From a virus, in IMG/VR virus record IMGVR_UViG_3300043395_003024, positions 81,205-145,204 of that record: a stretch of DNA of 64,000 nucleotides. One strand, given 5' to 3'. The notes under the pieces are model-generated. The model saw only the letters and a list, made by a program, of their open reading frames with translations. It was not told the origin of the DNA and searched no databases. Shown in pieces: positions 10,001 to 61,234 of this stretch (positions are counted from its first letter, which is position 1; each line of letters begins with the position of its first letter). A program made the position numbers and the translations under genes.

Positions 10001-13000
10001 CCGCCGAAGCCAAGCAAAAAATTTAAGAGTGCAAAAGAAGCATCTGACCATGGCGCGCGCGAGCGCAGACGGGTAAAAGCCACTCCAGAACAGAAAAAGG
10101 CCATGAAAGAGCTAGGCGATGTAGCCGAATCTGACGTTGGCATGCTCCTTGACCCGGCGACACAGACGCGGGCCGGACGCGCAATGAACAAGAGAAATGC
10201 AAGACTAAAGAGGCTAGGCCTAGAGGTTGACCCAATGTCTTCTGATGAAGCGGACACTGTTCAGCAAGTCGAAAAACTTTTGATACCAACAATGGAGGCG
10301 ATTGATGGAACATCTGTTGCCGACCCGTTTGAAATGGAAGCAATTATTGATTTCGAGGCAGGCGTCTTAAAGGGCAAACTAGATGGAAAAGAAGTTGATG
10401 TTGACAAGTTTGTTTCTGGTCGTGTCATAACTAGTAGAACAAAAAAGACAGACATGCCAGAACGCGGCCGGCGAGATGCAAAAACAGGCCGCACTTCTAG
10501 GCGCGTTGTTGTCCAGGTGAGAGAAGGCGACCGTGGATTATTCCCAGCAACAGGCGGAGAGGGCGAACAGAAGTTCGTTGCCCCGCCAGGACGATTGAGA
10601 ATTATCGGCAGGGACTCCGACGGTACAATCAGGGCAGAAATTTCTTATCAAAAAGATGCTGTTGAAGTTGTCGATGGCATGGCGGATAGCTTGTCAAAGA
10701 ATAAAACTGATGCAATATGGGCTCAGAGCCATGCCAAAAAAATACAGGCAGTTGCAGACAAATATGTTTCAAAGAGACGGGCATCTGGGAAAACGTTCCC
10801 AGGCTCGCGAAGCGACTATGACGACGTAGCTGCAAAATCAACATCTGACGTGCTTGATGACGTCATAGACGCCGGTGGCTCATTTGGAGAAGGCATTGAT
10901 GACCTGCCACCAGATGGGCCGTCAGGACGTTCAGGTTCACTGTCATCTGGCGCCGTAAATGGGAAAAGAAGTGCCCTTGGCGTGCCTGCGACACGACAGC
11001 AACGGACTCAATCACGCGAATCGAGAATGTCTTCCGTTACGAGAAATATTAAAACCGCACTTGGCGGTGGACGTGGCGACGGCAGTATTTCTCGGGGAGA
11101 TATTCACCCAGAAGTTGCTGACCTGATAGCCGGACTCCCCGAAGAGGTTCTCATTTCAAGGGCACAGGCAACCGCATACAGAATGCATGAAGGTTTTGAT
11201 AGAAGAGTCAGAGTGCGCGCGACTGACGCTGACATAGAAAGACTTTCATCAGGCCGCGGAATACGCTCTCCGTTCTCGTCCCCATCAGATGAAACTGCAA
11301 GGGCATCGAGAAGGGCTGAACGCCTAGCCGGTATGCCGCCAGAACAGCGTTCTGCAAGACTTTCTTCTGGTAGGACAATTGATTCAAGCGAAAACCTAGC
11401 CGAACGCAGGCGTCAGGAAAAAGACGTTGCCAAACGCGCCCTGTCCGTCTTTGACGACGTTATCAATAGTGGGCAAAACGTAAACGACATGTCTGATGAC
11501 GAGATATCAAAGAGATTTGGTGGGTCGGTTAAGCGGTCTGCAAGAAAGTCAATCAGCGAAAAAGACTCGAACCTTTATGAGGTTGACGATGTTTCTACTG
11601 CCGTAGCGCTCATGATGCTTGGACACCACGTTGAGGTAAGAGACCAAGATATTCGCCTTACGGAGCAGGCACAAAAAGTCTTTGAAAAAGAGGTTAAATC
11701 AGTAGCTAAAAAGCATATTAAAGAAAACCATCCGCGCTGGAGAGCATTTCAAGAGGAATATGCACTCAAAAACCCAGGACTAGATATCGACAACCCGGAT
11801 GTTAGAAAAGCAATGGAAAGCGAGTACGTAGGCAACTATCAGGCTGACCTATGTTCGCTTTATAACCCTGCGAACAACTTAATGTGCTCTGGCCACATAG
11901 GTATCGACAGAGAAAAAATGCCACAGACAAATGGTCGCTCATCTGGTCAAAATACAAAGGCAATAATGGCCCTTAAAGCTGGCGTGGCTGCAGGAAAATG
12001 GGAGCCATCAAAGGACGGAATAACGAGAAATAGGGAACTTGAAATTGAGTTTGCCGAAGAGCTAGACGCAAAAATAGCAAAAATCAATAGGAAGAGGTCA
12101 CAAGAAATACCACCTAAGGATGCTGTTTCTGATGATGAAATTCCAGGAATTCTTTATGAAATAATTGCAGACAAGCACTCGCTGCGCAATGAGCTAAGTG
12201 GCAAAACGCAGCGCGAACATATGGAAGACTCATTTAGTTTGCTTTCAGATAAAGCAAAGCAGTGGCTATATGAAAATACTGACTGGAACGATACAGAGGT
12301 TAACCTAGAAACGCCATTCATAAATTGGCTCAATGGCGTAATAGATGTTGAGGACCCACAGAATGGTGCGGCAGTTCGATTGAGAAAAGTTGACCCTAGC
12401 GAATATGCACCGTCACAGCAACAACTTGTAGCATCAAAAGTTGACTCAACCGCACAAACAATTCAGGAAACTGCGATAAAAATCGCAGAGCAGATAAGGG
12501 CTGCATCGCCAGGAATATCAGATGAAGAATTTAGAGTAAAGTATTTAGAAGAAATGGGTAAAGAATGGTTCATGCAGCCAATCCTTACAACACGAGATAA
12601 GTACATCTTAGATGGTCACCATAGGTGGGCAGGGATAGTTGTCGGCAATAGGTCTCTGCCGCCTGAGCTTCAAATACCACTTTCTGCTAATGAGGTTCAA
12701 ACAGATATCATCGAGGGACTTACGCTTGGAAAAGTATTCCAGGATGCGTTTGGGATTAAGGAAGCGCGTCTTGGTGCAGAGCTTCGCTGGGATGGAAAAC
12801 AAGAAAACATACCTCAGATATCTCCAGATGAATTTGATGCAATATCTACAGACTTAACTGCAAATGCACCAAGGCTAATCGATGAGAAATATAATCAGGG
12901 AGACTATATCCAGCTCGGGTCAGTAGGACTCCGTAATAATCCAGACTATGCACAAGCAGTTGAGTTCAGACAAAGACTTGCACGTACGCGCGGGCAAAGC

Positions 13001-15637: not shown

Positions 15638-17654
15638 TTTTGGACAGTGCTGTGGGGATAGTGAAGTTCTCGTAACGCGAGTACTTCTTTTTAACCCTGC
15701 ACAAAAACAAAACATTGACCACATACGCGGCATTAAGGCATTTTCTCAAGAAGCTACCGACTATAAGGCTCTTTCAAAGCGGTTCGGCAACACCAGGCGC
15801 ACACAGCGAAATGACGTTACGAATGGTATGCAGTTCAAGGCAAATGCAGCGCGTCAAATAGGGAGCACGGTCCTTAGCACAATACTTCCGGGAGATACTG
15901 GACCACTTCGGTCTCCAGTTCGCTCTGCATTTTACCGAACAGTAACTCCTGGATTTGGTGGCGGACGGCGCGGTGGTTCTCTTCCTGGTCAGAATAGGGC
16001 AGCAAGATGTCCCGAGGGCTACCAATTTGGTGGCCGATTTACCGACAACCGCCTGTCAACATGCGGCGCAAAATTGTTTGACATACCGTCAGTTCTTGGG
16101 CTAGCAATCGGAGCAGCAAGACGAGCACTTACATCTGGGATATCTCCACAAACTCGCGGAAGAGATATCACCGGAGCCCCATACGATAGCTCGATAATTC
16201 TTTCAAGGGCTCCGCAAATCCCGAAGGTCACATCGGGAAATCCAAGACTTGCCGCTGGAAGAGTCACCGATGAAATAAATGCCATAGGAAAATTCAATAA
16301 AGAATCTGGCATCAAAGCAAGAAGGATGGTTCGACGAGACGGATTTGTCCTGGAACCAGTAGTTCCAAACAAGGTTCTCCGCGCAATACCTGACAACAGA
16401 GATATGGAGGGCGCGTCATTCCTTATGTCTGCGCTATCCCCCAGGGATATTGGCGGTGAAGAGTTAGGGCTCTTGTCAAACACTGGCGTGAAGTCACTTA
16501 TTTACGTCCTTCCAGGAGGTTCGTCTATCACGCTAGAAAAAGCAAGACCATTGGAAATAGGCGAAAGACGCAAGCTTGGACGCGTCGTTAACCAGGTTGT
16601 GTCAATTGACAATTCACGTGACCCCTCAAAACGTCTCCGTTTCGTGGCTGATGAAATTGGAACCGGCCTTAAGTACTCAGAAAACTTCAAGGGCGTGAAG
16701 AATCCCAACGAAATAATCAAGGGAAGAATTAGTTGGGCCTCCCAGGTATGGGGCGGAAGACTTGCTTCTCAGCCAGAATCTTCGTCAATAAGAAACACGG
16801 AAACATTTGGGCCACGTCGCAAACTGATAAAGAGTGTTGATGAGGCGGTGCAGTTCCTGGTCGATGGTGGGAGCATGTCTGCAATTGACCCATCAATAAT
16901 GCCGAAAGTATTAGCTAAATCTGGTGTAATCCAAAAACAGAGGATGGCTAACAACATCACCGCAATCGCTACGCCATCAGAAAACCTGTTTCTATATGAA
17001 AAGCCAAAAACGTTTCAGCACATTGGCGAAAGATTTGCCTCAGACGTTCAGCAGGCACTGGGGCTCGAGTCTCCTGACGTTATTTTTGCTGGTAAACCCG
17101 GAGACACTAGGCAGTTCCTACGGCAAGAAGTTACATCTGCAATACCTGGTAGTAACTTCAACCCGGATGCAAAATTCAACGAGCTGGAGCCACGTGATGT
17201 GGCAGCGATGCTCGTATCGGATTTCTTAACCGACCAGCGTGAGCGCCCAATGACGTCAATATATACGCTTGACACTCCAGATGCTCGACGTCTGGTTCTT
17301 GGACAGAATTCAACTTCTGGATTAATTGATTTATCAAAGATTGAAATTACCAAGAGAATGAAGCTGAGCCTTGAAGAGTTTTATTCATCGCAATTAACGC
17401 CGTCTTACTCTGATTATTATCAGGCCCTTAAGGCCGAGCAGCGCATTATTTTTATGAAATACCTCTCGGAAATGATTAATCGCGCAAGAAAGTTTAACCC
17501 AAATAACTTTAAAGACTCACTCAACCAGTATGGATTGTCCGAAGGTGAAAAAATCCATCTAAATATTCTTGGCAAACTTTTTGAGTCGCGCCTTGAAGTT
17601 CTAAAGATTCAAAAAAATACTCTAAGGAAGATAGTTACTGGAGCTTCGCAATGA
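15621..17654 (+). CDS. Head-associated protein with RCPEGYQFGGRFTD motif and a C-terminal degenerate HipA/PI3K-like kinase fold
   Basis: ERFASDVQQALGLESPDV and SDFLTDQRER resemble the E..A...LG...P and D.l..n.DR motifs. Confidence 0.55.
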   Translation: MNAVDDFGQCCGDSEVLVTRVLLFNPAQKQNIDHIRGIKAFSQEATDYKALSKRFGNTRRTQRNDVTNGMQFKANAARQIGSTVLSTILPGDTGPLRSPVRSAFYRTVTPGFGGGRRGGSLPGQNRAARCPEGYQFGGRFTDNRLSTCGAKLFDIPSVLGLAIGAARRALTSGISPQTRGRDITGAPYDSSIILSRAPQIPKVTSGNPRLAAGRVTDEINAIGKFNKESGIKARRMVRRDGFVLEPVVPNKVLRAIPDNRDMEGASFLMSALSPRDIGGEELGLLSNTGVKSLIYVLPGGSSITLEKARPLEIGERRKLGRVVNQVVSIDNSRDPSKRLRFVADEIGTGLKYSENFKGVKNPNEIIKGRISWASQVWGGRLASQPESSSIRNTETFGPRRKLIKSVDEAVQFLVDGGSMSAIDPSIMPKVLAKSGVIQKQRMANNITAIATPSENLFLYEKPKTFQHIGERFASDVQQALGLESPDVIFAGKPGDTRQFLRQEVTSAIPGSNFNPDAKFNELEPRDVAAMLVSDFLTDQRERPMTSIYTLDTPDARRLVLGQNSTSGLIDLSKIEITKRMKLSLEEFYSSQLTPSYSDYYQALKAEQRIIFMKYLSEMINRARKFNPNNFKDSLNQYGLSEGEKIHLNILGKLFESRLEVLKIQKNTLRKIVTGASQ

Positions 17655-18331
17655 AAATAGGTTTTATCAAAAATGCATTCGGCAACATGCCGCATGCTGT
17701 GGCGACAGAGGCCGATGGGAAGATTGAAGTAAAGTCAATAACTGAATTTGGCAAGTCAATAATCAACAATTTTGATTTTGATAAAGACAACATATCGAGT
17801 ACTTTGCCGGAAGGATTCGTGTTTACGGGCTTTACGGAAAAAGCCATTCCAGCAGAATTTGAACAATCGCCAGACCATGTCAAAACAAAATCACTTGCAT
17901 ATTCCTGTTCATTTACTGCAGAGCAAATCGGCAAAAAATCAGCAGTTTCTAACATTTCAATCAACAAATTTACAAACAGCGCCGACAAATTAAATGCAAT
18001 TTCATTTAAGGCATCAGCCTTTAAGTCATCAAGCAGACGTGGGGAATTTTTGGCCAGAATAAGTTCTAAAAAAATCTTGTTCGACCAGAGGCTTGCGCGT
18101 GTTTCTAATAACCCCAAATTTGCATTCAGCCATCTGGAAGAAGAGGGTTTAAAGAGTTATTTCAGTGACGGGTTCATGAGAAAGACTGCTCAAAAAACAA
18201 CGCTGAATCGCCGTGCGGCTAGGCGTGCTCGCGTTCTTTCGAGTATGAACGAAGAAGAAAAATCAAAGCCAAAGAAAAACATACTTTCACGTATTAACAC
18301 AGCTCGTAAGGATGTTAAAAATGGCCGCTAA
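17651..18331 (+). CDS. Hypothetical protein, head cluster
   Basis: 226 aa ORF, ATGA-coupled. Confidence 0.65.
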   Translation: MKIGFIKNAFGNMPHAVATEADGKIEVKSITEFGKSIINNFDFDKDNISSTLPEGFVFTGFTEKAIPAEFEQSPDHVKTKSLAYSCSFTAEQIGKKSAVSNISINKFTNSADKLNAISFKASAFKSSSRRGEFLARISSKKILFDQRLARVSNNPKFAFSHLEEEGLKSYFSDGFMRKTAQKTTLNRRAARRARVLSSMNEEEKSKPKKNILSRINTARKDVKNGR

Positions 18332-19138: not shown

Positions 19139-20497
19139 ATGTCGGAAGACAAAGCCCGTATCGAGGAGCTGCAATCAGCCCTCCGTCAGAAGATGGCAGA
19201 CAATAAGACCATCGCTGACTCATTCAGAGTTGAGGACGGCACCGTTGTCGTTACTCCAGAGCAGAAGAGCGCGTTCGACAAGAACATGCGCGACATCAAG
19301 GAAATCAAGGGCCTTCTCGGCGACCTTGAGACCATGAACTCAGTTGATAGCTGGGGTTCAGAGCCGTCAGGCGATTCAGCAGCCGCCGCTTACGCAGCTG
19401 CTGCCGCAGACATGAACCAACTGTCATCTCGTGAAATCAAGAGCATTGGTCAGATGTTCCTTGAGTCAGCAGAGTTCAAGGCTCTCAACGGTGGCCGTAA
19501 TGGCGCAAACATGGCCGCTCCGTGGCAGGTTGCCGCTTCGCTAACATCTGGCTACAACGTCAAGGACGTGTACTCAGGTCTGCCTACAACAGACGTTACC
19601 GGTAGCCGTCTCGGTTCATTCGGCACGGTTCAGCGTGACCCAATGGTAACACCGCCAATGCGCACAAAGCGCGTTCGCGACCTGTTCCCAACACGCACCA
19701 CAAACGCTGCAGTGATTGAGTACTTCCGTCAACTCGGCTTCACCACGCTTCAGGCTGGTCATGGCACGAACTCGGCTTCTTCGGTCGCTGAGCGCAACGC
19801 CGGCAACACAGCATTCGGTATCAAGCCGCAGTCATCGTTCGCCTTTGTTGGCGAGCAGGCGCCGGTTCGTACGCTCGCCCACTGGGAAGCAGCGCACCGC
19901 AACGTCCTCGCAGATGAGCCGCAGCTGCGTTCAATCATCGACAACGAGCTCATGTATGGTCTCCGTCTCCTTGAGGACAACCAAATCCTCAACGGTGACG
20001 GCGTCGGCGAGAACCTGCTCGGCGTTCTGAACACCCCGAACATCCAGGAGTACGCATGGTCATCCGGTGCCGTTACCCCGGTCCCGGACACAAAGGCTGA
20101 TGCTCTCCGTCGCGCTGCGACCCTCTCATTCTTGGCATACTACGAGCCGTCAGGCATCGTGGTTCACCCGAACGACTGGGAAGACATCGAGCTGACAAAG
20201 GACGCCAATGGTCAGTACCTCATCGCGGTTTCGGTCGCAATGGGTGGCGAGCCACGCGTCTGGAGAATGCCAATCGTGGACACCCCGGCAATGACCGAGG
20301 GTACAGCACTGGTCGGTGCGTTCGGTACCGGCGCACAGCTGTACGACCGCGAGCAGGCGAGCATCCGCATCAGCGAGCAGCACTCGGACTTCTTCGTCCG
20401 CAACGCCATCGTCATCCTCGCGGAGCAGAGACTGGCACTCGCCGTCAAGCGTCCGGAGGCCTTCGTGAAGGTGGACTTCGACAACGCCCCTGACTGA
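19139..20497 (+). CDS. Major capsid protein, HK97 fold with N-terminal delta/scaffold domain
   Basis: VRDLF, KPQSSFAF, VRTLAHW, LADEPQLRSII, EDNQILNGDG, HPNDW..IEL.KD.NGQYL, FVRNAIVILAEQRLALAVKRPEAF; AAGGAG RBS; strongly biased codons. Confidence 0.95.
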   Translation: MSEDKARIEELQSALRQKMADNKTIADSFRVEDGTVVVTPEQKSAFDKNMRDIKEIKGLLGDLETMNSVDSWGSEPSGDSAAAAYAAAAADMNQLSSREIKSIGQMFLESAEFKALNGGRNGANMAAPWQVAASLTSGYNVKDVYSGLPTTDVTGSRLGSFGTVQRDPMVTPPMRTKRVRDLFPTRTTNAAVIEYFRQLGFTTLQAGHGTNSASSVAERNAGNTAFGIKPQSSFAFVGEQAPVRTLAHWEAAHRNVLADEPQLRSIIDNELMYGLRLLEDNQILNGDGVGENLLGVLNTPNIQEYAWSSGAVTPVPDTKADALRRAATLSFLAYYEPSGIVVHPNDWEDIELTKDANGQYLIAVSVAMGGEPRVWRMPIVDTPAMTEGTALVGAFGTGAQLYDREQASIRISEQHSDFFVRNAIVILAEQRLALAVKRPEAFVKVDFDNAPD

Positions 20498-53755: not shown

Positions 53756-53772
53756 TTTCAGATAAATTTATC
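53756..53772. repeat. 17-bp repeat, left copy (TTTCAGATAAATTTATC)
   Basis: 16/17 match to 61193-61209; palindromic core GATAAATTTATC. Confidence 0.6.
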
Positions 53773-53905
53773 CCAGTGGCGGCCAAGACCTCAAAATTTA
53801 TAGGGGTGCCGTGTTTTTGGGCTAGGAAAAATTACGGACGCGCTTTTCTTCCTTCACGGAGATGGCGAAAACAGCTAGATGGACATCCAATTGGAGATTG
53901 ATTGC

Positions 53906-54416: not shown

Positions 54417-54589
54417 ACGCCATCATACATACACACGCCGGCCGACACAAGCGGTTTGGATAAATTAAAATAAAAAAAGACGACCATAAAATTTTGATTT
54501 TTAGCTCCCCCCTGCTGTGGGGACGCGCTCGAAAGTTCGCGGGGCTCTCTGACCACCCCATTTCCCCACCACCACATCGGCGCATTTCT

Positions 54590-54910
54590 GACGCACGCAC
54601 ACGCATGAACACACGCACACACACGCACACACACGCACACACACGCACGCAGGCGCACGCAGGCGGGGGGCACGGCAGGTACATTCATGTTCCGGTTCGG
54701 GTACGCACACGCAATGCGAAGTGCGAAGCGAAGTGCGAAGCATCAAGCGATGAAGTGAACGCAACGCAGTGCGACACGCAACGCACACACAGTGACGCAA
54801 TGCGATACGACACGCACACGCAGTGCGACGCACACGCAGTGCGCATTGACCAACGCACACGCAGTGCGACAGTCACGCGCGCACGACGATGACACACGCA
54901 AGCACCACGC
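54590..54910. repeat. Low-complexity alternating purine-pyrimidine tract (CACACG, GCGAAGT and ACGCAGTGCG units)
   Basis: Seen directly. Confidence 0.8.
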
Positions 54911-54927
54911 GAGGTACACTTGTCGTC

Positions 54928-55098
54928 ATGCGAAAGCGCAAGCACATAGCCCAACCGAAATGGTCAGACGACGAGCGTCAATCGTTCGCCGATGGCGTGC
55001 GCATGCGAGCAAGCACCGTGCCCGACGCACGCAAGGCACAGAGCAAAGAGGCGTGTCGTCATGCGTACCGTCATGCGAGTGCGAGCGAGGGCGAGTAG
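54928..55098 (+). CDS. Small basic protein, 56 aa
   Basis: Leaderless TACACT-7 nt-ATG; MRKRKHIAQPKWSDDERQSFADG. Confidence 0.6.
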   Translation: MRKRKHIAQPKWSDDERQSFADGVRMRASTVPDARKAQSKEACRHAYRHASASEGE

Positions 55099-55637
55099 CA
55101 CGCACGCACCGACGCATCACGCCGAGAGGCGCGCGAGGTATGACGAGGGGCGACGAGGTGTAGGTAAGGCGAAGCGAATCGCTAGGTGCCACGGGTAGTG
55201 TGGCACATCACTAGACACGCCCGATAGAGAGCAATACCATGACCCCCATGACTAGGCATGTGATGGCAATGGTCAGCGCAACAGGTTCGAGCCCAATGCC
55301 ATCGACCCATCTCGACCACCTCACCCATTGACCCTCGCACCATTGGCACCATGATGACCACCCTCTCATCAGAGGTGAGCGAGAGCGTGAAGGTTTGCGA
55401 GGTGCCACGGGTGTCATACGGGTAACCCTACCCTCACGCATACACCTAGCCACCATGTATCACATGTCTAGCCCTATGTGTGTGGCTACCCATTGACATG
55501 CTGTCGCCATGACCGAGTGCCTACCCCATTGAGTATCCCGCCTATGACCCACTCCCACCCCTACCCCCTATTGACACATTGACCCAATGTCATCACACCC
55601 ACTTGACATGTACCACCCCTCATGTAGTGTCGTACCC

Positions 55638-55847
55638 ATGAACACATCAGACCTACTGACCTCATCCATCAACGACCTCTCATCAGAGGGGACAGTCACT
55701 CATGTCAATGCCATTGGAGATGACGTGGAGGTGTGGTTGTCCGTGCCCACTGACGAGGGGACACGACACATCATCAGACGCATCCCATGTCAGACCCCCG
55801 AGCAGGCGCAGAGTGTTGCGCGACTGTGGAAGGCTGTATGGTATTGA
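55638..55847 (+). CDS. Hypothetical protein
   Basis: TTGACA-16-TAGTGT-7 nt-ATG leaderless promoter. Confidence 0.65.
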   Translation: MNTSDLLTSSINDLSSEGTVTHVNAIGDDVEVWLSVPTDEGTRHIIRRIPCQTPEQAQSVARLWKAVWY

Positions 55848-55849
55848 GC

Positions 55850-56023
55850 ATGGACACATACCGAATCACCGTGTCAGTGCGTAAGCGCAATGACCTAGAA
55901 GCACCCAACAACATTGACGAAGCACTAGTCATGGTGCGTCAGCTGCTTACAAGGGGCTCCATGATTGACCTCATTGACATCGAGCCAGAGGACAAGCAGA
56001 CCAAAGAGGTGAAGTGGGGGTAG
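55850..56023 (+). CDS. Hypothetical protein
   Basis: Starts 2 nt after the previous stop. Confidence 0.55.
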   Translation: MDTYRITVSVRKRNDLEAPNNIDEALVMVRQLLTRGSMIDLIDIEPEDKQTKEVKWG

Positions 56024-56059
56024 AGGGCGCGCTCACCTAGTGAGTGATACCCTTGCCCT

Positions 56060-56425
56060 ATGTCAGGCATCTATGTACCACGACGCAAGGTACATCAAGC
56101 GATTCGTGTGTCATGTCTGACCAATGACTACCTCACTGACGAGGGCGAACTAGAACAGATGCTCGCATGTGCCATGTTCATGACGAAGGTGTTTCAGGCG
56201 TGCCGTGACGCAGGCGTGACGACGCGCAGTGCCACGGGTAGTGAGGTGAACCTAGTGTCCCTGATGATAGAGACCGAGATGGAACTAGGTATCTATCGTT
56301 CGCCTGCCGACCTTGACATGCTCAACAGGTTCCACCGCTATCAGGTGGAGTGGGAGACGACACGACGCAGGCGATACTGCTATGCCGTCATGTACCGCAT
56401 GACATCAGGTGTCATCGTTCAGTAG
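56060..56425 (+). CDS. Hypothetical protein
   Basis: TGA-TACCCT-6 nt-ATG. Confidence 0.6.
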   Translation: MSGIYVPRRKVHQAIRVSCLTNDYLTDEGELEQMLACAMFMTKVFQACRDAGVTTRSATGSEVNLVSLMIETEMELGIYRSPADLDMLNRFHRYQVEWETTRRRRYCYAVMYRMTSGVIVQ

Positions 56426-56485
56426 CCCAACCCACCCGAAGGCGCAGGTGCCACGGGTGCCCTACGGGTAGTGGTGTAGGTAGGT

Positions 56486-56512
56486 GGAAGTCTGTCCCCG
56501 TGATAGTACGCT
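56486..56512 (+). promoter_or_regulatory. Island promoter 1: GGAAGTCTGTCC-N9-TACGCT
   Basis: One of five aligned copies; ATG 7 nt downstream. Confidence 0.75.
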
Positions 56513-56519
56513 CATGTCC

Positions 56520-57005
56520 ATGAGTGACACATCAGAGACAAGCACCACCCCCGAGTTCACACCGTTCTTCCGTCAGTACAAGCACGCAACATGCTCTGCC
56601 TGTCGTGGAAGTTTCGTGTGTACCCAGCAAGAGCACTACCCCGACAACGGTTGGGTGTTGCCGTTCGACACATTCGGCTACTACGGCGGATTCGATGACA
56701 ATGTTGGCGTTCTCACAGGGAGCCGTCGCAGTCGTGAGTGGATTCTCTGCCATGACTGTGTTGTGAAGTTCCTTGACACATTCCCCCTGCTCGCACAGGA
56801 CATTGGTCAGAACTGCCATCCAGCAGGACGCGATGACACATTGCCATGCTGTCGTCACGCTTGGCAAGGGACAGACATCTTTGGCAAGAACATCGACGGT
56901 GTTCACACTCGCACCGCATGGCCTGACGGACTGTGGCATGACGATGAGCCACACAACCCCTATGCTCGTCATGACGAAAGGAAGCACGATGCCACTCAAC
57001 CTTGA
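56520..57005 (+). CDS. Cys-rich hypothetical protein
   Basis: CSAC..GYYGGFDD..LCHDC. Confidence 0.7.
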   Translation: MSDTSETSTTPEFTPFFRQYKHATCSACRGSFVCTQQEHYPDNGWVLPFDTFGYYGGFDDNVGVLTGSRRSREWILCHDCVVKFLDTFPLLAQDIGQNCHPAGRDDTLPCCRHAWQGTDIFGKNIDGVHTRTAWPDGLWHDDEPHNPYARHDERKHDATQP

Positions 57006-57246
57006 CCTGACCCTCGCCGACTGGCTCGTCTGCCAGTGCGGTAACGAACCCGACCTCGACGGTTTCTTCACCTGTTCACCAACAGGCACTATGGTTTCGC
57101 CAGAGGCCACGGGTAGTTGGGATGGACATTCGTACCTCTGCTTGCGGTGCGGTGCCATCTATGACATCACCACGTTCGAGCAGACAGGAGAGGCGACCAC
57201 GGAAGTGATGCGCGCGAACTACCTACGAGGCGATGCCGAGGTGTAG
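56989..57246 (+). CDS. Zinc-ribbon hypothetical protein
   Basis: GAAAGGA RBS; CQCGN..DGF..CLRCG. Confidence 0.65.
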   Translation: MPLNLDLTLADWLVCQCGNEPDLDGFFTCSPTGTMVSPEATGSWDGHSYLCLRCGAIYDITTFEQTGEATTEVMRANYLRGDAEV

Positions 57247-57373
57247 GTAACACCTAACGCAGCCGAACATCTCTGTATCGGAACACCAACAACTGCGGGG
57301 CTCCCACCGGAACGCACACACACGCCACCTGTATGGCACGGGGTTGGATAGCAGGTAGGTGTAGGTAAGTTGC

Positions 57374-57400
57374 GGAAGTCTGTCCCGTGCGTGGTACGCT
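57374..57400 (+). promoter_or_regulatory. Island promoter 2: GGAAGTCTGTCC-N9-TACGCT
   Basis: Aligned copy with TGG extension. Confidence 0.75.
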
Positions 57401-57433
57401 TCGTGTTGCCAACATCTACGGAAAGGGATTCAC

Positions 57434-57748
57434 ATGGCAAGCATTATCAACACTCTTGACCGCGCAGACGCACGGGTCACAAACTGGTTGGATGACAAGT
57501 ATCCGACATTCATCTACCGATACGTCGTCGGTATGTTCACATTCGCACTGCTCACGGGTGTGTTCGCTATCGCTAAGGCGTACATCACGCGCAACGCGTT
57601 TGACCTGTTCTTCGGAATCCTGCTGACAGTTGGTTCGGCTATCGGCGGAACGCTCGCAACCTTGTGGGCGTGTAACGCAATCGCTTCGCTTCGTGACAAG
57701 GGGCGACGCGTTCACCCGTCATACCCCTACAAAGGTGTAGGTAAGTGA
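57434..57748 (+). CDS. Two-TM membrane protein
   Basis: GAAAGGGA RBS; two hydrophobic helices. Confidence 0.7.
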   Translation: MASIINTLDRADARVTNWLDDKYPTFIYRYVVGMFTFALLTGVFAIAKAYITRNAFDLFFGILLTVGSAIGGTLATLWACNAIASLRDKGRRVHPSYPYKGVGK

Positions 57749-57749
57749 C

Positions 57750-58454
57750 ATGGACACGCTGACACGCACACGCGAGGTCATCGCGGAAATGCTCACGGAG
57801 AACACGGGTCGTCACATACTGGACAGTGGCGGTGCGTATGGGCGACACTGGGAACGCAACGCAGGGCGCACACTCGCAGAGTGGAACGCGCAACCGCGCG
57901 CATGGGCTGACCGTTGGGGCGTGACGCTCTCGGTCTATCACTATCTCGCAGAACGCTTGGAGTACGCGCCGACACTTGACGCAGAGTTCCGCGCTTTCTG
58001 TTCGGAGAATCCCGATGACGGTTGGCTCTCGCTCGCGGAGTCGTTCGCGTTCGAGAAGGATGCCAGCGCGCACACATGGAACACCTACAACGGTGAGGAC
58101 TCGCTCGCGCAGACGCTACAAGGCGTGACATTCTCCCATGACGGGGAAGTGTTCACCCTCTTACAGATTCACGGGGGGTGCGATGTTCGCGGTGGCTACA
58201 CATCACCGCGCGCGTTCCGTGTCACGGTAGACATGGCAGAGTCGTTCCCGTACGACAATGCGAACTACTCGCTCGTGTGTCTGAACGATGAAGAACACTC
58301 GGTGGAGTGCGTCTACGGAGAGTTGCTCTCACTCGTTCACGGGTTCTCCCTCGCAGATGATGAGAAACCGCTATTCGGAGAGAAGGACTCTGACGCCCCA
58401 CTCTGTTGCGTGTGTCGCACCGCGATGACGGTAGACGCGCCGTACGCATACTGA
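57750..58454 (+). CDS. Conserved-looking phage hypothetical protein
   Basis: MLTENTG..LDSGGAYGRHW..LQIHGGCDVRGGYT. Confidence 0.75.
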   Translation: MDTLTRTREVIAEMLTENTGRHILDSGGAYGRHWERNAGRTLAEWNAQPRAWADRWGVTLSVYHYLAERLEYAPTLDAEFRAFCSENPDDGWLSLAESFAFEKDASAHTWNTYNGEDSLAQTLQGVTFSHDGEVFTLLQIHGGCDVRGGYTSPRAFRVTVDMAESFPYDNANYSLVCLNDEEHSVECVYGELLSLVHGFSLADDEKPLFGEKDSDAPLCCVCRTAMTVDAPYAY

Positions 58455-58634
58455 CTCGGTACACGACGCGCACCGTGTCGGCACTCATCTACTTAGGTGT
58501 AGGTAAGTGTCGGCACGGTGTTTCGCGCTTACCTACACACATTCCGCGCGACACTCACCATCGGAGTTGAGGACAACCGAACGCAGTGAGGGCGTCAGGA
58601 GCGGGGCTCCTGCCATAGCGCACAACACCACTCG

Positions 58635-58661
58635 GGAAGTCTGTCCGATGTGTGGTACTGT
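58635..58661 (+). promoter_or_regulatory. Island promoter 3: GGAAGTCTGTCC-N9-TACTGT
   Basis: Aligned copy. Confidence 0.75.
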
Positions 58662-58691
58662 GTGGCCGTTGCCGAACGAAAGGGGTTCACA

Positions 58692-58883
58692 GTGGCATCA
58701 ACAACATTCATCATCAAGCGCGTGGCGCGTCTCACGGGTGGCGGTATCAGCCGTACCGTTCTCAATGAGACGTTCGCTTCCAAGCGCGACGCAGAGAAGT
58801 TCCTCGGCCTCGCGCTCTACTTCCCTGCCCCGAACATCGGAGAGGACACGGTGGAATACTCCATCGTCGCACAGCGCGCCTGA
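58692..58883 (+). CDS. Small hypothetical protein, 63 aa
   Basis: GAAAGGGG RBS then GTG; leader resembles that of 57434. Confidence 0.6.
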   Translation: MASTTFIIKRVARLTGGGISRTVLNETFASKRDAEKFLGLALYFPAPNIGEDTVEYSIVAQRA

Positions 58884-58948
58884 CACCGCTTCGGACTTAC
58901 CTACACCTAGTAGCGCGCCTGCTACGGGTGTAGGTAAGGCCACGGGTG

Positions 58949-60151
58949 CTAGCGGTCTACCTTGATGACGCGAGGCCGTGCGGTCACTTCATCGCCAGCG
59001 TTGCCACCGCGACGGTGTGCGCGAATCCACTTCGCACGGTGTTGCTTCTGCGACGGATACCACTGGTTGCGCCAGTGGCCACGGACAAGGTGCGCGAGTG
59101 TCACCTTGTTACCTACACCTGTTCCATCGCTCTCATCGTCAAGCGCGCGACGCAGGGAGAGAATCGTCACGTTCCGTAGGTCACCACCGCGACCCACACG
59201 CGAGGCACGACGGCCGTGCGCGCGATGGAGAGGGGACTTACCTACATCTACATACTCTTCCATGAGACGGAACAGAGCGACGAGAAAGCGACGAACGGTG
59301 TTCTTCCTGTCAAGCGACGCGGAGAGCATCTCATCGGTCACGCGGTCTTTCTCGTAGTAGTCCTTCTCCTCGCGCAGTCCATCTTCGTCGTAGAAGAACG
59401 CGTAGATGTCCATCAGTCGCAGGTCGCGACCCATCTCGGGAATCTCCACCGTCAGGCCGTCTACGGTCGTTCCAGTCATCGTGCCGTACACGCGAACATA
59501 CACGCCCTTCTCCGCATCGGATGCGAAGAGCAACTTCTCGGCCAGCGCGTACTCGGCCGACTTGCGCCCAAACCTCTTCTCAACATCGGCCAGCGCGTCG
59601 GGCTTGATGCTGTCAATGTCTCCCCATGCGAACGCGCGAACATCCCAATGCTCTGCGCCGACGTAATCGCCGAACTCGTCGGGTGCGGTGTTGAGTCGCG
59701 TTCCCTTCACGCTTCCACCTCGCGCGACGATGAGGTCAAGCAGTGAGTCGTATTCGTGCGCCTTCATACGCGAGAGAACATCCATCGTGATGGGTGTCTC
59801 CATGACGACGAATCCGCACGGTGTGTAAATGTCCGTCGCGAACAGAACCTCGTCGGGCATCGTGGCCTCGGCCGTGTTCACCAACTCGCGCAGGTCGTCG
59901 GTCAGGAACACGGTGTCGGCACGGGTGAGTATCGCGTCGTCAAGTGTGCGCGAGACTTCGTGATACGCGTGGCTCTCCTTCATTGCGGATTCCAACGTCG
60001 CGCGCGAGAGCGTGTCGTCCACGGGTGCGCCCACGAACGCGCGGTAGTAGCCGTGGTGTAGCAGGCGGTCGGCCGTGGGGTGGCCGTTGCGGAACTCAAC
60101 CAACTTCGTGTGGAGGTCAAAGGCGAGTGAGGCAGACGAGATTTCTTCCAT
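58949..60151 (-). CDS. Phage protein with C-terminal HxVRGHWR motif
   Basis: 400 aa; HLVRGHWRNQW..WI..H.RG; leaderless. Confidence 0.8.
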   Translation of the reverse strand: MEEISSASLAFDLHTKLVEFRNGHPTADRLLHHGYYRAFVGAPVDDTLSRATLESAMKESHAYHEVSRTLDDAILTRADTVFLTDDLRELVNTAEATMPDEVLFATDIYTPCGFVVMETPITMDVLSRMKAHEYDSLLDLIVARGGSVKGTRLNTAPDEFGDYVGAEHWDVRAFAWGDIDSIKPDALADVEKRFGRKSAEYALAEKLLFASDAEKGVYVRVYGTMTGTTVDGLTVEIPEMGRDLRLMDIYAFFYDEDGLREEKDYYEKDRVTDEMLSASLDRKNTVRRFLVALFRLMEEYVDVGKSPLHRAHGRRASRVGRGGDLRNVTILSLRRALDDESDGTGVGNKVTLAHLVRGHWRNQWYPSQKQHRAKWIRAHRRGGNAGDEVTARPRVIKVDR

Positions 60152-60157
60152 GCCCCG

Positions 60158-60184
60158 AATGTACCACCAGCAGGACAGACTTCC
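60158..60184 (-). promoter_or_regulatory. Island promoter 4: GGAAGTCTGTCC-N9-TACATT
   Basis: ATG 6 nt downstream. Confidence 0.75.
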
Positions 60185-60432
60185 AACTCCGCTACCTGCC
60201 GTTCACACCCGTGCGCGCAGGCCGTGCCTGCCCTCCCTCCGGGAGCCCCGTTTCGCTTCTTGTCGCTCCCGCCTCGCTTCGCTCGTTGGGCTGGCGCACC
60301 GTGCTTCGCACGGTTTGCCCTCTGCCTGTGTGGCGTGGGTTGCCGTGGGTGTTCGGGCGTGTGGCGTGGCGTGTGGTTGTGCGCCTGTGGTGGGTGTGGT
60401 TCCCCTCTTTCGGGGTTACCTACACCTTCCCG

Positions 60433-60993
60433 TCACCAGTCCCTGTGTTCGGTCGGGTTCTCGTTCTCCCGAATCTGTGCGTCGTACGCCAGCCAGCCTC
60501 GGGTCGTCTCGTACGCCTCCAATGCCTGCCACTCGTCCCACGAGATGCTTCCGCAGTAGGTCGTGGGCGAGAGCGAGTAGTCGCTGATGCCGTGGCGGTC
60601 GTCAGAGCCTTCCAGCCTCTCTCGGGTGAGCAGGACTCCGACGACGATGCGGTCGCCCTTCTTCGCCTCCGTCTCGGGGAGGGTCAGGGTGACTTCTGCG
60701 CCAGCACCGTGCCAGCCCCAGTCGTCGTACGGGAACTCGTCCACGAGGCAGGTGGCGCACTCGCAGGCGAGCGTGTTCGTCCACTCGCCGTTCTCGTCGC
60801 ACGGCACGGGCTTGCCCTCGTACAGGCACGGGGTGTCCAGCACCAGCGCACGGGCGGTGTTGCGGTCCCACCAGTCGGGGCGGAACCAGCCCGTGACGGA
60901 CTCGCCGTCCACGCTGTCCACCGTGAGGACGACCTCACCCTCGTACAGGACGCGCCCGTCCCTCAACTCGCACTCCGTCTCAATCCTGAGCAT
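60433..60993 (-). CDS. Acidic hypothetical protein
   Basis: GAAAGGGGAG RBS before ATG 60993; CECATC. Confidence 0.65.
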   Translation of the reverse strand: MLRIETECELRDGRVLYEGEVVLTVDSVDGESVTGWFRPDWWDRNTARALVLDTPCLYEGKPVPCDENGEWTNTLACECATCLVDEFPYDDWGWHGAGAEVTLTLPETEAKKGDRIVVGVLLTRERLEGSDDRHGISDYSLSPTTYCGSISWDEWQALEAYETTRGWLAYDAQIRENENPTEHRDW

Positions 60994-61036
60994 GGCTCCC
61001 CTTTCGTCGGGGGAGACCGTCCCCCCCGACACCGCC

Positions 61037-61063
61037 AGCGTACCACGGGTGGGGCAGGCTTCC
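61037..61063 (-). promoter_or_regulatory. Island promoter 5: GGAAGCCTGCCC-N9-TACGCT
   Basis: Variant copy with identical spacing. Confidence 0.7.
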
Positions 61064-61192
61064 CGTTGTGGCTTACCTACACCGTACCTGCCGTGCCTCC
61101 CCGTTGCGTGGGGGCGCGTGGGGGTCTTCTCCCTGCGGGAGCCCCGCTATCTCCGGCATGACCTACCTACACCTTCCCCTACGGACAGCACC

Positions 61193-61209
61193 TTTCAGAT
61201 AGATTTATC
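61193..61209. repeat. 17-bp repeat, right copy (TTTCAGATAGATTTATC)
   Basis: 16/17 match to 53756-53772. Confidence 0.6.
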
Positions 61210-61234
61210 TACGAGATAGAGAGACGGAGACACA

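Follow-up and report, generated by a model that had tools for sequence, protein, structure and literature searches.

A lineage-specific asymmetric word at promoters and gene ends in the early block of an actinobacterial phage: a putative operator- or stoperator-like site

Results

A repeated word at 55157-61173

The sequence comes from an uncultured actinobacterial phage represented by a 145-kb contig that is 91% complete (G000), and the window analyzed here is a 64,000-nucleotide stretch of that contig. We compared it with a complete relative of 158 kb (G001) and with the further relatives G002 and G003; profiles for recombinases and transposases were run on five genomes. In the examined 6-kb part of the window, GGTGTAGGTAAG occurs in seven exact copies (55157+, 57358+, 57734+, 58496+, 58896-, 58927+, and 61072-) and seven copies with one mismatch (56473+, 57240+, 58528-, 59108-, 59237-, 60415-, and 61162-). 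All 14 copies announced by the original prediction were thus recovered at their positions, and no exact copy appeared in 100 dinucleotide-preserving shuffles. However, the predicted 12-mer is only the core of the true word, which measures 13 to 15 nt, (a)GGTGTAGGTAAGT(c). This word lacks dyad symmetry and self-complementarity, and it contains stop codons in two frames. The features of this part are as follows, in window coordinates.

55157..55168, +: exact word, intergenic; first copy, at the left edge of the early block's right-hand part; aligned word identical in G001, none in G002
56473..56484, +: one-mismatch word (GGTGTAGGTAGG) separated by 1 nt from the downstream promoter at 56486-56512; the aligned positions of G001 and G002 lack a word, and G002 carries one of its own within a few nt, likewise ahead of this promoter
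56486..56512, +: promoter in the early class GGAAGTCTGnnCC-N6-(T)GnTACnnT, read from the sequence; a leader and ORF 56520-57005 lie downstream
57240..57251, +: one-mismatch word (..AAC) that supplies, with its TAG at 57244-57246, the stop codon to ORF 56989-57246; aligned position GGTGTAGGTAAC in G001, GTAGTAGATAAC in G002
57358..57369, +: exact word, with 4 nt between it and the downstream promoter at 57374-57400
57374..57400, +: early promoter GGAAGTCTGTCCCGTGCGTGGTACGCT; leader with the ribosome-binding site GGAAAGGG, ATG at 57434
57734..57745, +: exact word forming the last four codons of ORF 57434-57748 (GGT GTA GGT AAG, then TGA) and stopping 4 nt short of the ATG at 57750; aligned position GGTGTAGGTAAG in G001, GAAGTAGATAAG in G002
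58496..58539, no strand: inverted word pair (58496+, 58528-), 41 nt past the stop of ORF 57750-58454
58635..58661, +: early promoter of ORF 58692-58883, with no word directly upstream
58896..58938, no strand: inverted word pair (58896-, 58927+) where ORFs 58692-58883 (+) and 58949-60151 (-) converge; kept in G001 (42892/42923) and in G002
59108..59119, -: one-mismatch match inside the 400-aa ORF 58949-60151 (-); aligned places GGTGCAGGAGCG in G001 and GGTGTCGGCCAC in G002, neither of them a word
59237..59248, -: word with one mismatch, in sense within the 400-aa ORF, read in the one frame of the word that has no stop, as GAT GTA GGT AAG (D V G K)
60158..60184, -: early promoter of the 400-aa ORF; its upstream element is a degenerate word, CGGCAGGTAGC, at the site where G002 has the full word GTAGATAAGT
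60415..60426, -: word with one mismatch (..AAC), 6 nt past the stop of ORF 60433-61032 (-)
61037..61063, -: early promoter GGAAGCCTGCCCCACCCGTGGTACGCT of ORF 60433-61032 (-)
61072..61083, -: exact word, separated by 8 nt from the promoter at 61037-61063, on its upstream side; the intergenic region is divergent, and no minus-strand gene precedes the word; G002 reads GTAGATAAGT there
61162..61173, -: one-mismatch word (GGTGTAGGTAGG) preceding the promoter at 61037-61063 by about 100 nt, in that divergent region and by the start of the DUF932 gene; aligned place AGTGTAGGTAAG in G001, no word in G002

These positions bear out most of the predicted placements. The copies said to lie beside promoters (56473, 57358, and 61072) are each 1 to 8 nt upstream of a repeated promoter, those said to overlap gene ends (57240 and 57734) cover a TAG stop codon and the last four codons, respectively, and the members of both inverted pairs do have opposite orientations. 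The two copies described as lying inside a coding sequence are within the 400-aa ORF, but the one at 59108 is probably a chance match, since it has no counterpart in either close relative.

Distribution and polarity of the word

The word had been thought to be confined to 6 kb. In contrast, a scan of the whole contig at up to one mismatch gave 46 copies, located at both contig ends, 30 of them in the first 13 kb. All but 2 of the 46 fall inside the early block (44 copies). In G001, 74 of 75 copies lie within 11.8-46.5 kb, a GC-rich block of small early-type genes; this block of about 35 kb corresponds to about 22% of the genome, and the two contig ends of G000 belong to one such larger block that is contiguous in the complete relative. 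Early and anti-defense-type genes (DUF3846, DUF1281_C, and DUF932) are encoded there. Reversed-word controls gave 0 to 1 copies.

The predicted co-orientation with local transcription was confirmed for 36 of the 44 in-block copies (about 80%), the other 8 being mostly partners of inverted pairs. Across ten related loci, 336 copies are on the early-gene strand versus 83 on the opposite strand. Moreover, the in-gene copies that are kept in relatives are all in sense, although the antisense orientation is stop-free in every frame. Fourteen of the 44 copies lie on a co-oriented stop codon or within 10 nt past it, and 7 lie 1 to 19 nt upstream of a promoter. In five genomes, 36 to 53% of words were found at the sense-strand end of an open frame of at least 60 codons, compared to 7 to 14% of random nearby positions. 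The spacing of tandem copies clusters at 19 to 22 bp, about two helical turns.

Lineage-specific spelling of the word

At the same positions, the relatives carry other spellings, among them GAGTAGATAAGT, GGTAGATAAGT, ACTAGATAAGT, and AATAGATAAGT; eight spellings were counted in all. About 35 of 46 orthologous sites read GGTGTAGGTAAG in G001 and G(G/A)AGTAGATAAG in G002. Respelling between this phage and G002 occurs even within DNA that is 97 to 100% identical (window 60289-61060), as at 60415, where G002 reads GA-GTAGATAAC. The copy at 59237 has no word as its counterpart in G001; in G002, it has that phage's own spelling, GAA GTA GAT AAG (E V D K instead of D V G K), indicating that the residues changed with the word. 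Such respelling is seen inside two genes and replaces Gly with Asp. Peptide conservation as an explanation of the motif is excluded, because the two conserved in-gene copies altered their residues to follow the word. Judging from these alignments, selection acts on the DNA letters of the word.

Relation to early promoters

The repeated promoter, GGAAGTCTGnnCC-N6-TGGTACnnT, is of the extended -10 type. This contig has 10 copies of it, G001 has 19, and G002 has 20, and a word directly precedes most of them. The hexamer of the word shows two preferred spacings to the -10 element, 18 nt and 27 nt. Discrete spacing of this kind is more typical of activators and speaks against a repressor.

The word could be a positive promoter element, namely, the site of an activator or sigma-remodeling factor comparable to the T4 MotA box, or a -35 or UP-like module, by which host RNA polymerase would be recruited to the early block; any copy elsewhere than at a promoter would then be a spare or decayed promoter half. 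This is a possible explanation, which we nevertheless judge to be rather unlikely. It is consistent with the arrangement in G003, where the -35 part of at least 12 promoters is the word itself: 12 of them read TAGATAAGTCTGAACC-N6-TGGTACAGT, with the word hexamer TAGATA, which matches TTGACA at 4 of 6 positions, located 18 nt from a TGn-extended -10. In this phage, G001, and G002, the -35 part belonging to the promoter itself, TTGGGAAGTCTG, can be aligned with TAGATAAGTCTG (the word plus CTG), and the true word lies about one helical turn further upstream, at 27 nt rather than 18 nt. However, most words are away from promoters, and no enrichment of -10-like hexamers was detected downstream of them. 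Many lie between a stop and the next start (57734; genome position 5182) or within genes (59237; genome position 8229), where half a promoter would be useless, and decayed halves would not track the lineage spelling so faithfully.

RNA folding

The inverted pairs fold strongly. The pair at 58496/58528 forms a hairpin with a 13-bp stem (-23.4 kcal/mol, z = -3.5), and the pair at 58896/58927 forms one on either strand (-34.4 and -33.4 kcal/mol, z = -3.8 and -4.2). Single words showed no RNA structure (z = -0.3 to -0.9), and no T tract was found 3' of the inverted-pair hairpins. We thus rejected intrinsic terminators as an identity for the word.

The T4 proteins RegB and RegA inactivate early messages. 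The word might likewise act in RNA, as the target of an endoribonuclease or a translational repressor at gene junctions, or it might provide terminator-hairpin arms only. The sense orientation of the junction copies, their restriction to early genes, and the folding of the pairs fit such a role, which we nevertheless consider unlikely. The copies at 61072 and 61162 and those close to promoters are upstream of transcription starts, in the former case in a divergent region through which no gene reads, which argues for an action on DNA. Single words are unstructured, and the hairpins of the pairs are devoid of a T tract. Moreover, the fixed spacing to the -10 and the 19- to 22-bp spacing of tandem copies are DNA-level features.

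Gene replacement and other proposals

A further proposal, improbable in our view, is that the words are junction linkers for module exchange between co-infecting relatives, with recombination keeping the spelling uniform. ORF 60433-61032 (-) is about 97% identical in G002 and is replaced by an unrelated gene in G001, where homology runs through the promoter and leader and returns at the word on the other side. In addition, several BLASTN blocks shared by G000 and G001 end a few bases from a word (genome positions 1204/1208, 2079/2078, and 10984/10983), and the stop codons in two frames of the word would suit such a linker. The cassette recombination that had been suggested for the motif is thus partly right as a consequence, one gene having been replaced between a promoter and a word; gene order is otherwise collinear. 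As for a mechanism, no tyrosine or serine recombinase, integrase, resolvase, or Y1 transposase (PF01797) was found in the five genomes. In each of G000 and G002, the near-identical cassette lies between words in that phage's spelling, and one word inside the identical stretch is respelled, whereas a shared crossover site would predict the reverse. The in-gene copies, the tandem arrays, and the promoter spacing would also be left unexplained. Two specific element types were rejected, both having been set against single words that are not palindromic: an integron-like cassette array, on account of the missing recombinase, and REP/RAYT elements, on account of the missing PF01797 (Y1/HUH transposase) match.

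The 12-nt ops element (GGCGGTAGnnTG) recruits RfaH. An RfaH-like reading, in which an elongation factor would be loaded or paused by the word in single-stranded form, on the non-template strand of the transcription bubble, appears very improbable: the strict strand dependence and the 12- to 13-nt length agree with it, and GGTGTAG loosely resembles GGCGGTAG of ops, but ops occurs once or twice per operon leader and not at each junction, and no bubble ever opens at the copies upstream of promoters. Finally, we give hardly any credence to DNA-end or DNA-entry signals, whether staged-injection stops as in T5 (an alternative of the original prediction) or Chi-like protection of the entering end, since the clustering in a single block of early and anti-defense-type genes with one strand predominant is countered by an orientation that flips locally with gene direction (58949-61173) and by copies on stop codons and next to promoters, and since the "terminal repeat" of the relatives is a 121-bp assembly overlap and no guide to physical genome ends.

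Candidate reader proteins and lifestyle

Three helix-turn-helix (HTH) proteins are common to all relatives: a Cro-like protein of 73 aa, a winged-helix protein of 162 aa, and a sigma-r4/KorA-like protein of 124 aa. The original prediction had named HTH, RHH, and WhiB proteins for binding tests with the motif; no RHH protein was identified. No reader emerged among the three HTH proteins, both WhiB proteins, and a TrmB-like winged-helix protein, the DNA-reading parts of which are invariant across all spellings, and no DNA-binding candidate came out of a screen for proteins whose grouping follows the spelling. The 162-aa protein is predicted to combine a variable helical N-terminal domain with an invariant C-terminal winged helix (pLDDT 86); a Foldseek search against the PDB returned weak winged-helix matches only (E of at least 0.1).

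Three of 5 relatives encode a ParA-like ATPase; the gene downstream of it is not conserved among these three, and no ParB partner was recognized next to it. A search of 185,579 species genomes yielded no prophage copy, the only matches being three short MAG contigs. With no integrase and a ParA-like gene in only three relatives, there is no evidence of lysogeny, and nothing among integrases, recombinases, and prophage copies pointed to an immunity repressor.

Discussion

The word lies at promoters and gene ends, is oriented with the genes, and is spelled differently in each relative, which suggests a docking site for a regulator. We therefore favor, at about an even chance of being right, an operator- or stoperator-like site through which a putative lineage-specific, fast-changing regulator would govern transcription of the ~35-kb early block. 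At about 20 early promoters the word abuts the -35 (in G003, it is the -35), and a putative bound protein would thus control initiation, most simply by occluding RNA polymerase. At junctions within operons, the same protein may act on elongating polymerase in an orientation-dependent manner, as a stoperator-like roadblock, and the inverted pairs at operon ends could additionally yield strong hairpins. One protein could in this way switch off the entire block, for instance, at the early-to-middle switch of a lytic cycle. Binding, the repressing or roadblock effect, and its timing are what we infer from the arrangement; given the lack of any sign of lysogeny, the biological role of such a silencing system is an assumption.

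Among known systems, integron attC sites and REP/RAYT elements are repeats at gene 3' ends, partly as inverted doublets. The word resembles them in these respects, in its lineage-specific sequences, and in the one cassette-like gene replacement, but a single word is non-palindromic and gene order is conserved here. T4 RegB cleaves early mRNA at GGAG in intergenic regions, a 4-nt motif within ribosome-binding sites. Both signals are short and lie on the sense strand at early-gene junctions, where that of RegB serves early shut-off; however, RegB acts on RNA and on 4 nt, whereas the word has 13 to 15 nt and is present also in untranscribed DNA upstream of promoters. T4 MotA boxes are phage-specific asymmetric boxes that replace the -35 before a normal -10, similarly to the word-fused promoters of G003. 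In contrast to MotA boxes, which occur at promoters only, most words mark gene ends or operon interiors, and the word of this genome stands upstream of the -35 part instead of replacing it.

The closest comparison is with the stoperators of Cluster A phages (L5 with its repressor gp71, Bxb1, and TipsytheTRex). Cluster A repressors bind as monomers to asymmetric sites of 13 to 14 bp; each genome has 20 to 30 of these, which follow the direction of transcription and mostly occupy short intergenic spaces, with some in promoters, and the motifs vary between lineages even with an identical HTH (PMC9283540, PMC6550527). Here, the words are two to three times as numerous (46 in the partial contig and 75 in the complete relative) and occupy one ~35-kb block of a ~158-kb genome, whereas Cluster A sites are spread over a ~50-kb genome. 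This limitation to one block, set against the genome-wide sites of L5, speaks against a stoperator reading. Tandem arrays and inverted pairs are common for the word, unlike in Cluster A. The Cluster A repressor has an HTH and a second, "Stoperator" DNA-binding domain and keeps lysogeny in temperate phages (with integrase or parABS); in this phage, by comparison, we recognized no gp71-like repressor, no conserved HTH that tracks the spelling, no integrase, and no evidence of lysogeny, and only the 162-aa protein is a predicted two-domain candidate. The stoperator analogy, raised by the original prediction, thus falls short in its reader protein and in signs of lysogeny and stands in its anatomy: like Cluster A sites, the words are asymmetric, present in dozens of copies, and oriented with transcription (about 80%), with some overlapping or adjoining the -35 of early promoters, most falling within very short gaps between genes or on start and stop codons, and a consensus that differs among related phages.

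The word marks a single GC-rich block of early-type genes

The asymmetric 12-mer GGTGTAGGTAAG (here called the word; with its flanks, the full unit is (a)GGTGTAGGTAAGT(c)) occurs seven times as an exact match in the window and was absent from shuffled sequence. Allowing one mismatch gave 14 copies, all within 55157-61173, and every copy listed in the original prediction was recovered at its position. The proposed confinement of the word to 6 kb was not upheld, however: a scan of the whole IMG/VR virus contig (145,204 bp, CheckV completeness of 91%, with the window as its right-hand 64 kb) at the same tolerance gave 46 copies. The first 13 kb held 30 of these, window 55157-61173 held 14, and the remaining two were one-mismatch matches in the intervening 123 kb. 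The reversed word, used as a control, had no match over the whole contig. G+C content reaches 56-60% at both word clusters versus approximately 47% genome-wide.

G001, a complete relative with the same spelling of the word (158,021 bp), is collinear with the contig of the lake-derived phage under study (G000) at roughly 65-83% nucleotide identity and carries 75 words, 74 of which lie within 11.8-46.5 kb. Since the two contig ends correspond to G001 positions 23,620 and 37,936, the contig must have broken inside the block. The word clusters are a single block of approximately 35 kb. About 14.3 kb of it is absent from the G000 contig and present in G001 (23.6-37.9 kb) and in a second relative, G002 (108.9-122.2 kb); this segment carries a ParA-like ATPase and approximately 10 further early promoters. 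A word-free, low-GC segment containing a DUF932 gene and a helicase-like gene interrupts the block (window 61235 onward; approximately 37-40.7 kb in G001).

The block genes are small and mostly lack a family match in Pfam and PHROGs. Those recognized encode DUF3846, a DUF1281_C/Api92-like protein, an AAA_5 ATPase with a 582-aa neighbor, DUF932, a Cro-like helix-turn-helix (HTH) protein, a sigma-r4-like HTH protein and, in relatives, the ParA-like ATPase. A nucleotide search of phage records returned no match to the block, and elsewhere tRNA genes alone. In the literature, the word was found only within unrelated PCR primers, and a sequence search of four block proteins against solved structures gave nothing significant. 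The host is an actinobacterium, as indicated by two WhiB genes, an Rpf-like transglycosylase domain (PF06737) and GAAAGGGG-type ribosome-binding sites.

Two sequence oddities were observed near the right-hand part of the block. Approximately 550 nt at window 54580-55160 consist almost solely of CA, CG and GC steps (cacacgcacacacacgca...), with no convincing open reading frame (ORF); the tract is preceded by A/T-rich sequence and, at about 54670-54705, by a degenerate early-type promoter. Moreover, a near-palindromic 17-nt repeat, TTTCAGATA(A/G)ATTTATC, flanks this part of the block at 53757-53775 and 61194-61212. The latter copy (61197-61212) is kept in G001 and G002, adjoins the start of the DUF932 gene and includes TAGATAAA, which is similar to the word of relatives.

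Words follow gene orientation and lie at gene ends and early promoters

Using a gene set curated by conservation with G001, we found 36 of the 44 in-block copies to be co-oriented with local genes, and most of the others complete an inverted pair. Within the window, plus-strand copies (55157-58496 and 58927) go with plus-strand genes and minus-strand copies (58896-61162) with both minus-strand genes; 58528 and 58927 each pair with another copy in a hairpin. Fourteen in-block copies lie on a co-oriented stop codon or at most 10 nt past it, and in seven of these the stop codon is the TAG at word positions 5-7. Seven copies precede a repeated promoter at a distance of 1-19 nt. In-gene copies comprise four co-oriented ones and an antisense one (genome 10646) that looks like a chance match; the copy at window 59108, which has no counterpart in either relative, is probably also a chance match.

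This anatomy was matched by an ORF-free check of five genomes, in which open frames of at least 60 codons ending at a word were counted. Sense-strand frames ended at 36-53% of words versus 7-14% of random nearby positions; for antisense-direction frames the value was 6-27%. When ten related loci were oriented by one early gene, 336 copies lay on the strand of that gene versus 83 on the opposite strand. The spacing of tandem copies clusters at 19-22 bp. The hairpins formed by inverted pairs have energies between -23 and -34 kcal/mol (z from -3.5 to -4.2) and no T tract after them; single words showed no folding.

The repeated early promoter, GGAAGTCTG(A/T)(A/C)CC-N6-TGGTACnnT (also written GGAAGTCTGnnCC-N6-TGGTACnnT), has an extended -10 element, followed by a conserved leader of 25-45 nt and a GAAAGGGG ribosome-binding site. 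It is found only in the block, with 10 copies in the contig, 19 in G001 and 20 in G002.

Early promoters in the window
56486-56512, plus strand, early promoter
57374-57400, plus strand, early promoter
58635-58661, plus strand, early promoter
60158-60184, minus strand, early promoter
61037-61063, minus strand, early promoter

Directly upstream of most early promoters is a word or a degenerate word (e.g., CGGCAGGTAAGT). In G003, a relative with another spelling, the word is built into the promoter (TAGATAAGTCTGAACC-N6-TGGTACAGT, at least 12 cases), with TAGATA 18 nt from the -10 element and matching TTGACA at four of six positions. Alignment anchored on the -10 element showed that the -35 part of the G000-type promoter (TTGGGAAGTCTG) is a degenerate word copy plus CTG. 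The preferred spacing from word hexamer to -10 element is 18 nt in G003 and G004 (a further relative) or 27 nt in G000 to G002. The word thus corresponds to a -35-like hexamer extended on both sides. It is not a stand-alone sigma-70-type promoter, since no -10 enrichment was seen behind non-promoter copies.

Three further repeats were noted. A CGGGGCTCC / GGGAGCCCCG box lies between words and promoters (window 57296-57304, 58602-58610, 60241-60250 and 61137-61146) and is among the commonest 8-mers of many distant relatives. A TGACGGTGGTGGAAG box lies upstream of words or promoters (whole-contig coordinates, L174: approximately 1425-1440, 3232-3247, 10047-10062 and 10560-10572) and is conserved more widely than any other repeat in distant relatives without a TAGATAA-type word. 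The third, GCCACGGGT(A/G), is limited to the plus-strand portion of the right-hand block (approximate starts at window 55188, 55402, 56232, 56449, 57106 and 58939).

The word is respelled between lineages

About 100 related loci were gathered via a neighboring 234-aa protein and the 162-aa block protein. They contain eight spellings with a common core, TAG(G/A)TAA(G/C)T, and a divergent 5' part, GAGTAGATAAGT being an alternative to GGTGTAGGTAAGT. Distant relatives have unrelated polar words, such as GTGATACAAT (15 plus, 2 minus) and TTGTCGGTCAGGGGTGG (11 plus, 0 minus).

Spellings of the word among related loci
aGGTG-TAGGTAAGT, G000 and G001
ggAG-TAGATAAGT, G002
AGAG-TAGATAACT, other loci
aGAG-TAGATAAGTC, other loci
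aGG-TAGATAAGT, G003
ACT.AC-TAGATAAGT, G004 group
gtAA-TAGATAAGT, other loci
cTAA-TAGATAACT, other loci

Among the relatives, G002 stands nearest to G000, with approximately 80% nucleotide identity in the block. About 35 of 46 orthologous sites read G(G/A)AGTAGATAAG in G002 versus GGTGTAGGTAAG in G000 and G001. Over window 60289-61060, G000 and G002 share 97-100% identity. The word at 60415 within this stretch is nonetheless respelled or missing in G002, as are the words at 61072 and 61162 just outside it. Two in-gene copies, at window 59237 and genome 8229, have GAT/GGT GTA GGT AAG in G000 versus GAA/GGA GTA GAT AAG in G002, indicating that the change from Gly to Asp tracks the word. Respelling within near-identical DNA, together with these amino acid changes, is unusually clean evidence that selection acts on the DNA letters. 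Peptide conservation was rejected as an explanation, since most copies fall between genes or span a stop codon and the two in-gene copies kept in relatives altered their residues (G to D) with the word.

The ORF at 60433-61032 (minus strand; 199 aa, GC3 of 0.90) shares approximately 97% DNA identity with G002 versus a background of approximately 80%. Its slot in G001 holds an unrelated gene; homology to G001 extends across leader and promoter on one side and picks up again at the 3' word on the other. These limits, promoter/leader and 3' word, appear to enclose a recently exchanged cassette. We read such replacement as probable recombination in conserved regulatory DNA, that is, as a consequence of the architecture and not its purpose.

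No tyrosine recombinase, serine recombinase or Y1 transposase was found in the five genomes, and mobile-element readings were rejected for lack of an integrase, resolvase or Y1 transposase. Three relatives carry the ParA-like ATPase within their block, with a downstream neighbor that is not conserved among the three. A search of 185,579 species genomes for the 162-aa protein family gave just three short MAG contigs. We thus see no evidence of lysogeny or prophages.

Search for a protein that reads the word

Cluster A mycobacteriophage repressors are monomeric and combine an HTH with a second, more variable DNA-binding domain, and their motifs may differ despite an identical HTH (PMC9283540, PMC6550527). 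We therefore looked for a conserved HTH fused to a variable domain. All relatives share three block HTH proteins: a 73-aa Cro-like protein, the 162-aa protein (L174:5913-6401, plus strand) and a sigma-r4/KorA-like protein of 124 aa encoded on the opposite strand (L174:10083-10457, minus strand). The 162-aa protein combines a helical N-terminal domain that is variable with an invariant winged helix at the C terminus; its AF2 model (pLDDT of 86) gave weak winged-helix matches only in Foldseek. The recognition helices (DRKTVNRIENG, GFSYQTTL and LSRQRVHQI) are identical across the eight spellings and also constant in relatives with unrelated words; those of the 124-aa and 162-aa proteins are invariant in approximately 80 related loci. 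This constancy rules out these helices as the source of the spellings. They more likely read widely conserved intergenic boxes (GACGGTGGTGGAAG, CGGGGCTCC) or the promoter, and the TGACGGTGGTGGAAG box may be the target of one invariant HTH protein.

The two WhiB proteins were excluded as readers, as was a winged-helix protein of TrmB-like type, their reading parts being invariant over the eight spellings and also in relatives with unrelated words. A fast-evolving 154-aa winged-helix-like protein was discarded because it differs even between the same-spelling G000 and G001, and a ParA partner because the gene 3' of ParA is not conserved among relatives. We also screened for proteins closer between G000 and G001 than to G002, though G002 is the closer relative. 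This screen gave no DNA-binding candidate; it yielded small acidic proteins, an HNH protein and a basic 226-aa protein. The last (window 17651-18331, plus strand; pI 10) is fast-evolving, and its gene sits two genes ahead of that for the major head protein (19139-20497); it probably serves as a scaffold or as an internal protein of the head. The reader could be a variable domain of the HTH, WhiB or TrmB-like proteins, a module of one of the three giant virion proteins or a host factor.

Interpretation and comparison with stoperators

We favor, with moderate confidence, the view that the word is a lineage-specific protein-binding site. A candidate reader bound at early promoters would make it an operator, and the same reader bound at gene junctions would make it a polar, stoperator-like site. 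The main rival, to which the discrete distance between word and -10 element lends weight, holds that the word is a positive promoter element resembling a MotA box; we think this unlikely. Readings of the word as an RNA-level signal, a recombination linker, an ops-like element or a DNA-entry signal are weaker.

The protein-binding view can be extended, speculatively, to a fast-diverging "address code" of the block, which we regard as a doubtful proposition. One protein would turn approximately 70 promoter and junction sites on or off jointly and would also silence the early block of incoming relatives with the same spelling; conflict during co-infection would lie behind the eight related spellings and the unrelated distant words. 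Were this true, stoperator-type silencing would be a general phage-phage exclusion device outside lysogeny. If the reader protein is found, it would explain the timing or shut-off of approximately 70 early genes and provide natural, mutually orthogonal operator-regulator pairs for actinobacteria, and competition-driven co-evolution of regulator and site would become directly testable.

The original prediction likened the words to the stoperators of phage L5, and our best explanation stays close to that analogy. It departs from the Cluster A system in three respects: no repressor was found among the conserved HTH, WhiB and TrmB-like proteins or by the spelling-grouping screen, the words occupy a single block, and, unlike in the temperate Cluster A phages, signs of lysogeny are absent. 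To our knowledge, stoperator-type control has been described solely in temperate Cluster A mycobacteriophages. A stoperator-like layout is now seen in a different and much larger group, uncultured and apparently lytic actinobacterial phages, where it occupies the early block only and carries a clear record of respelling under selection.
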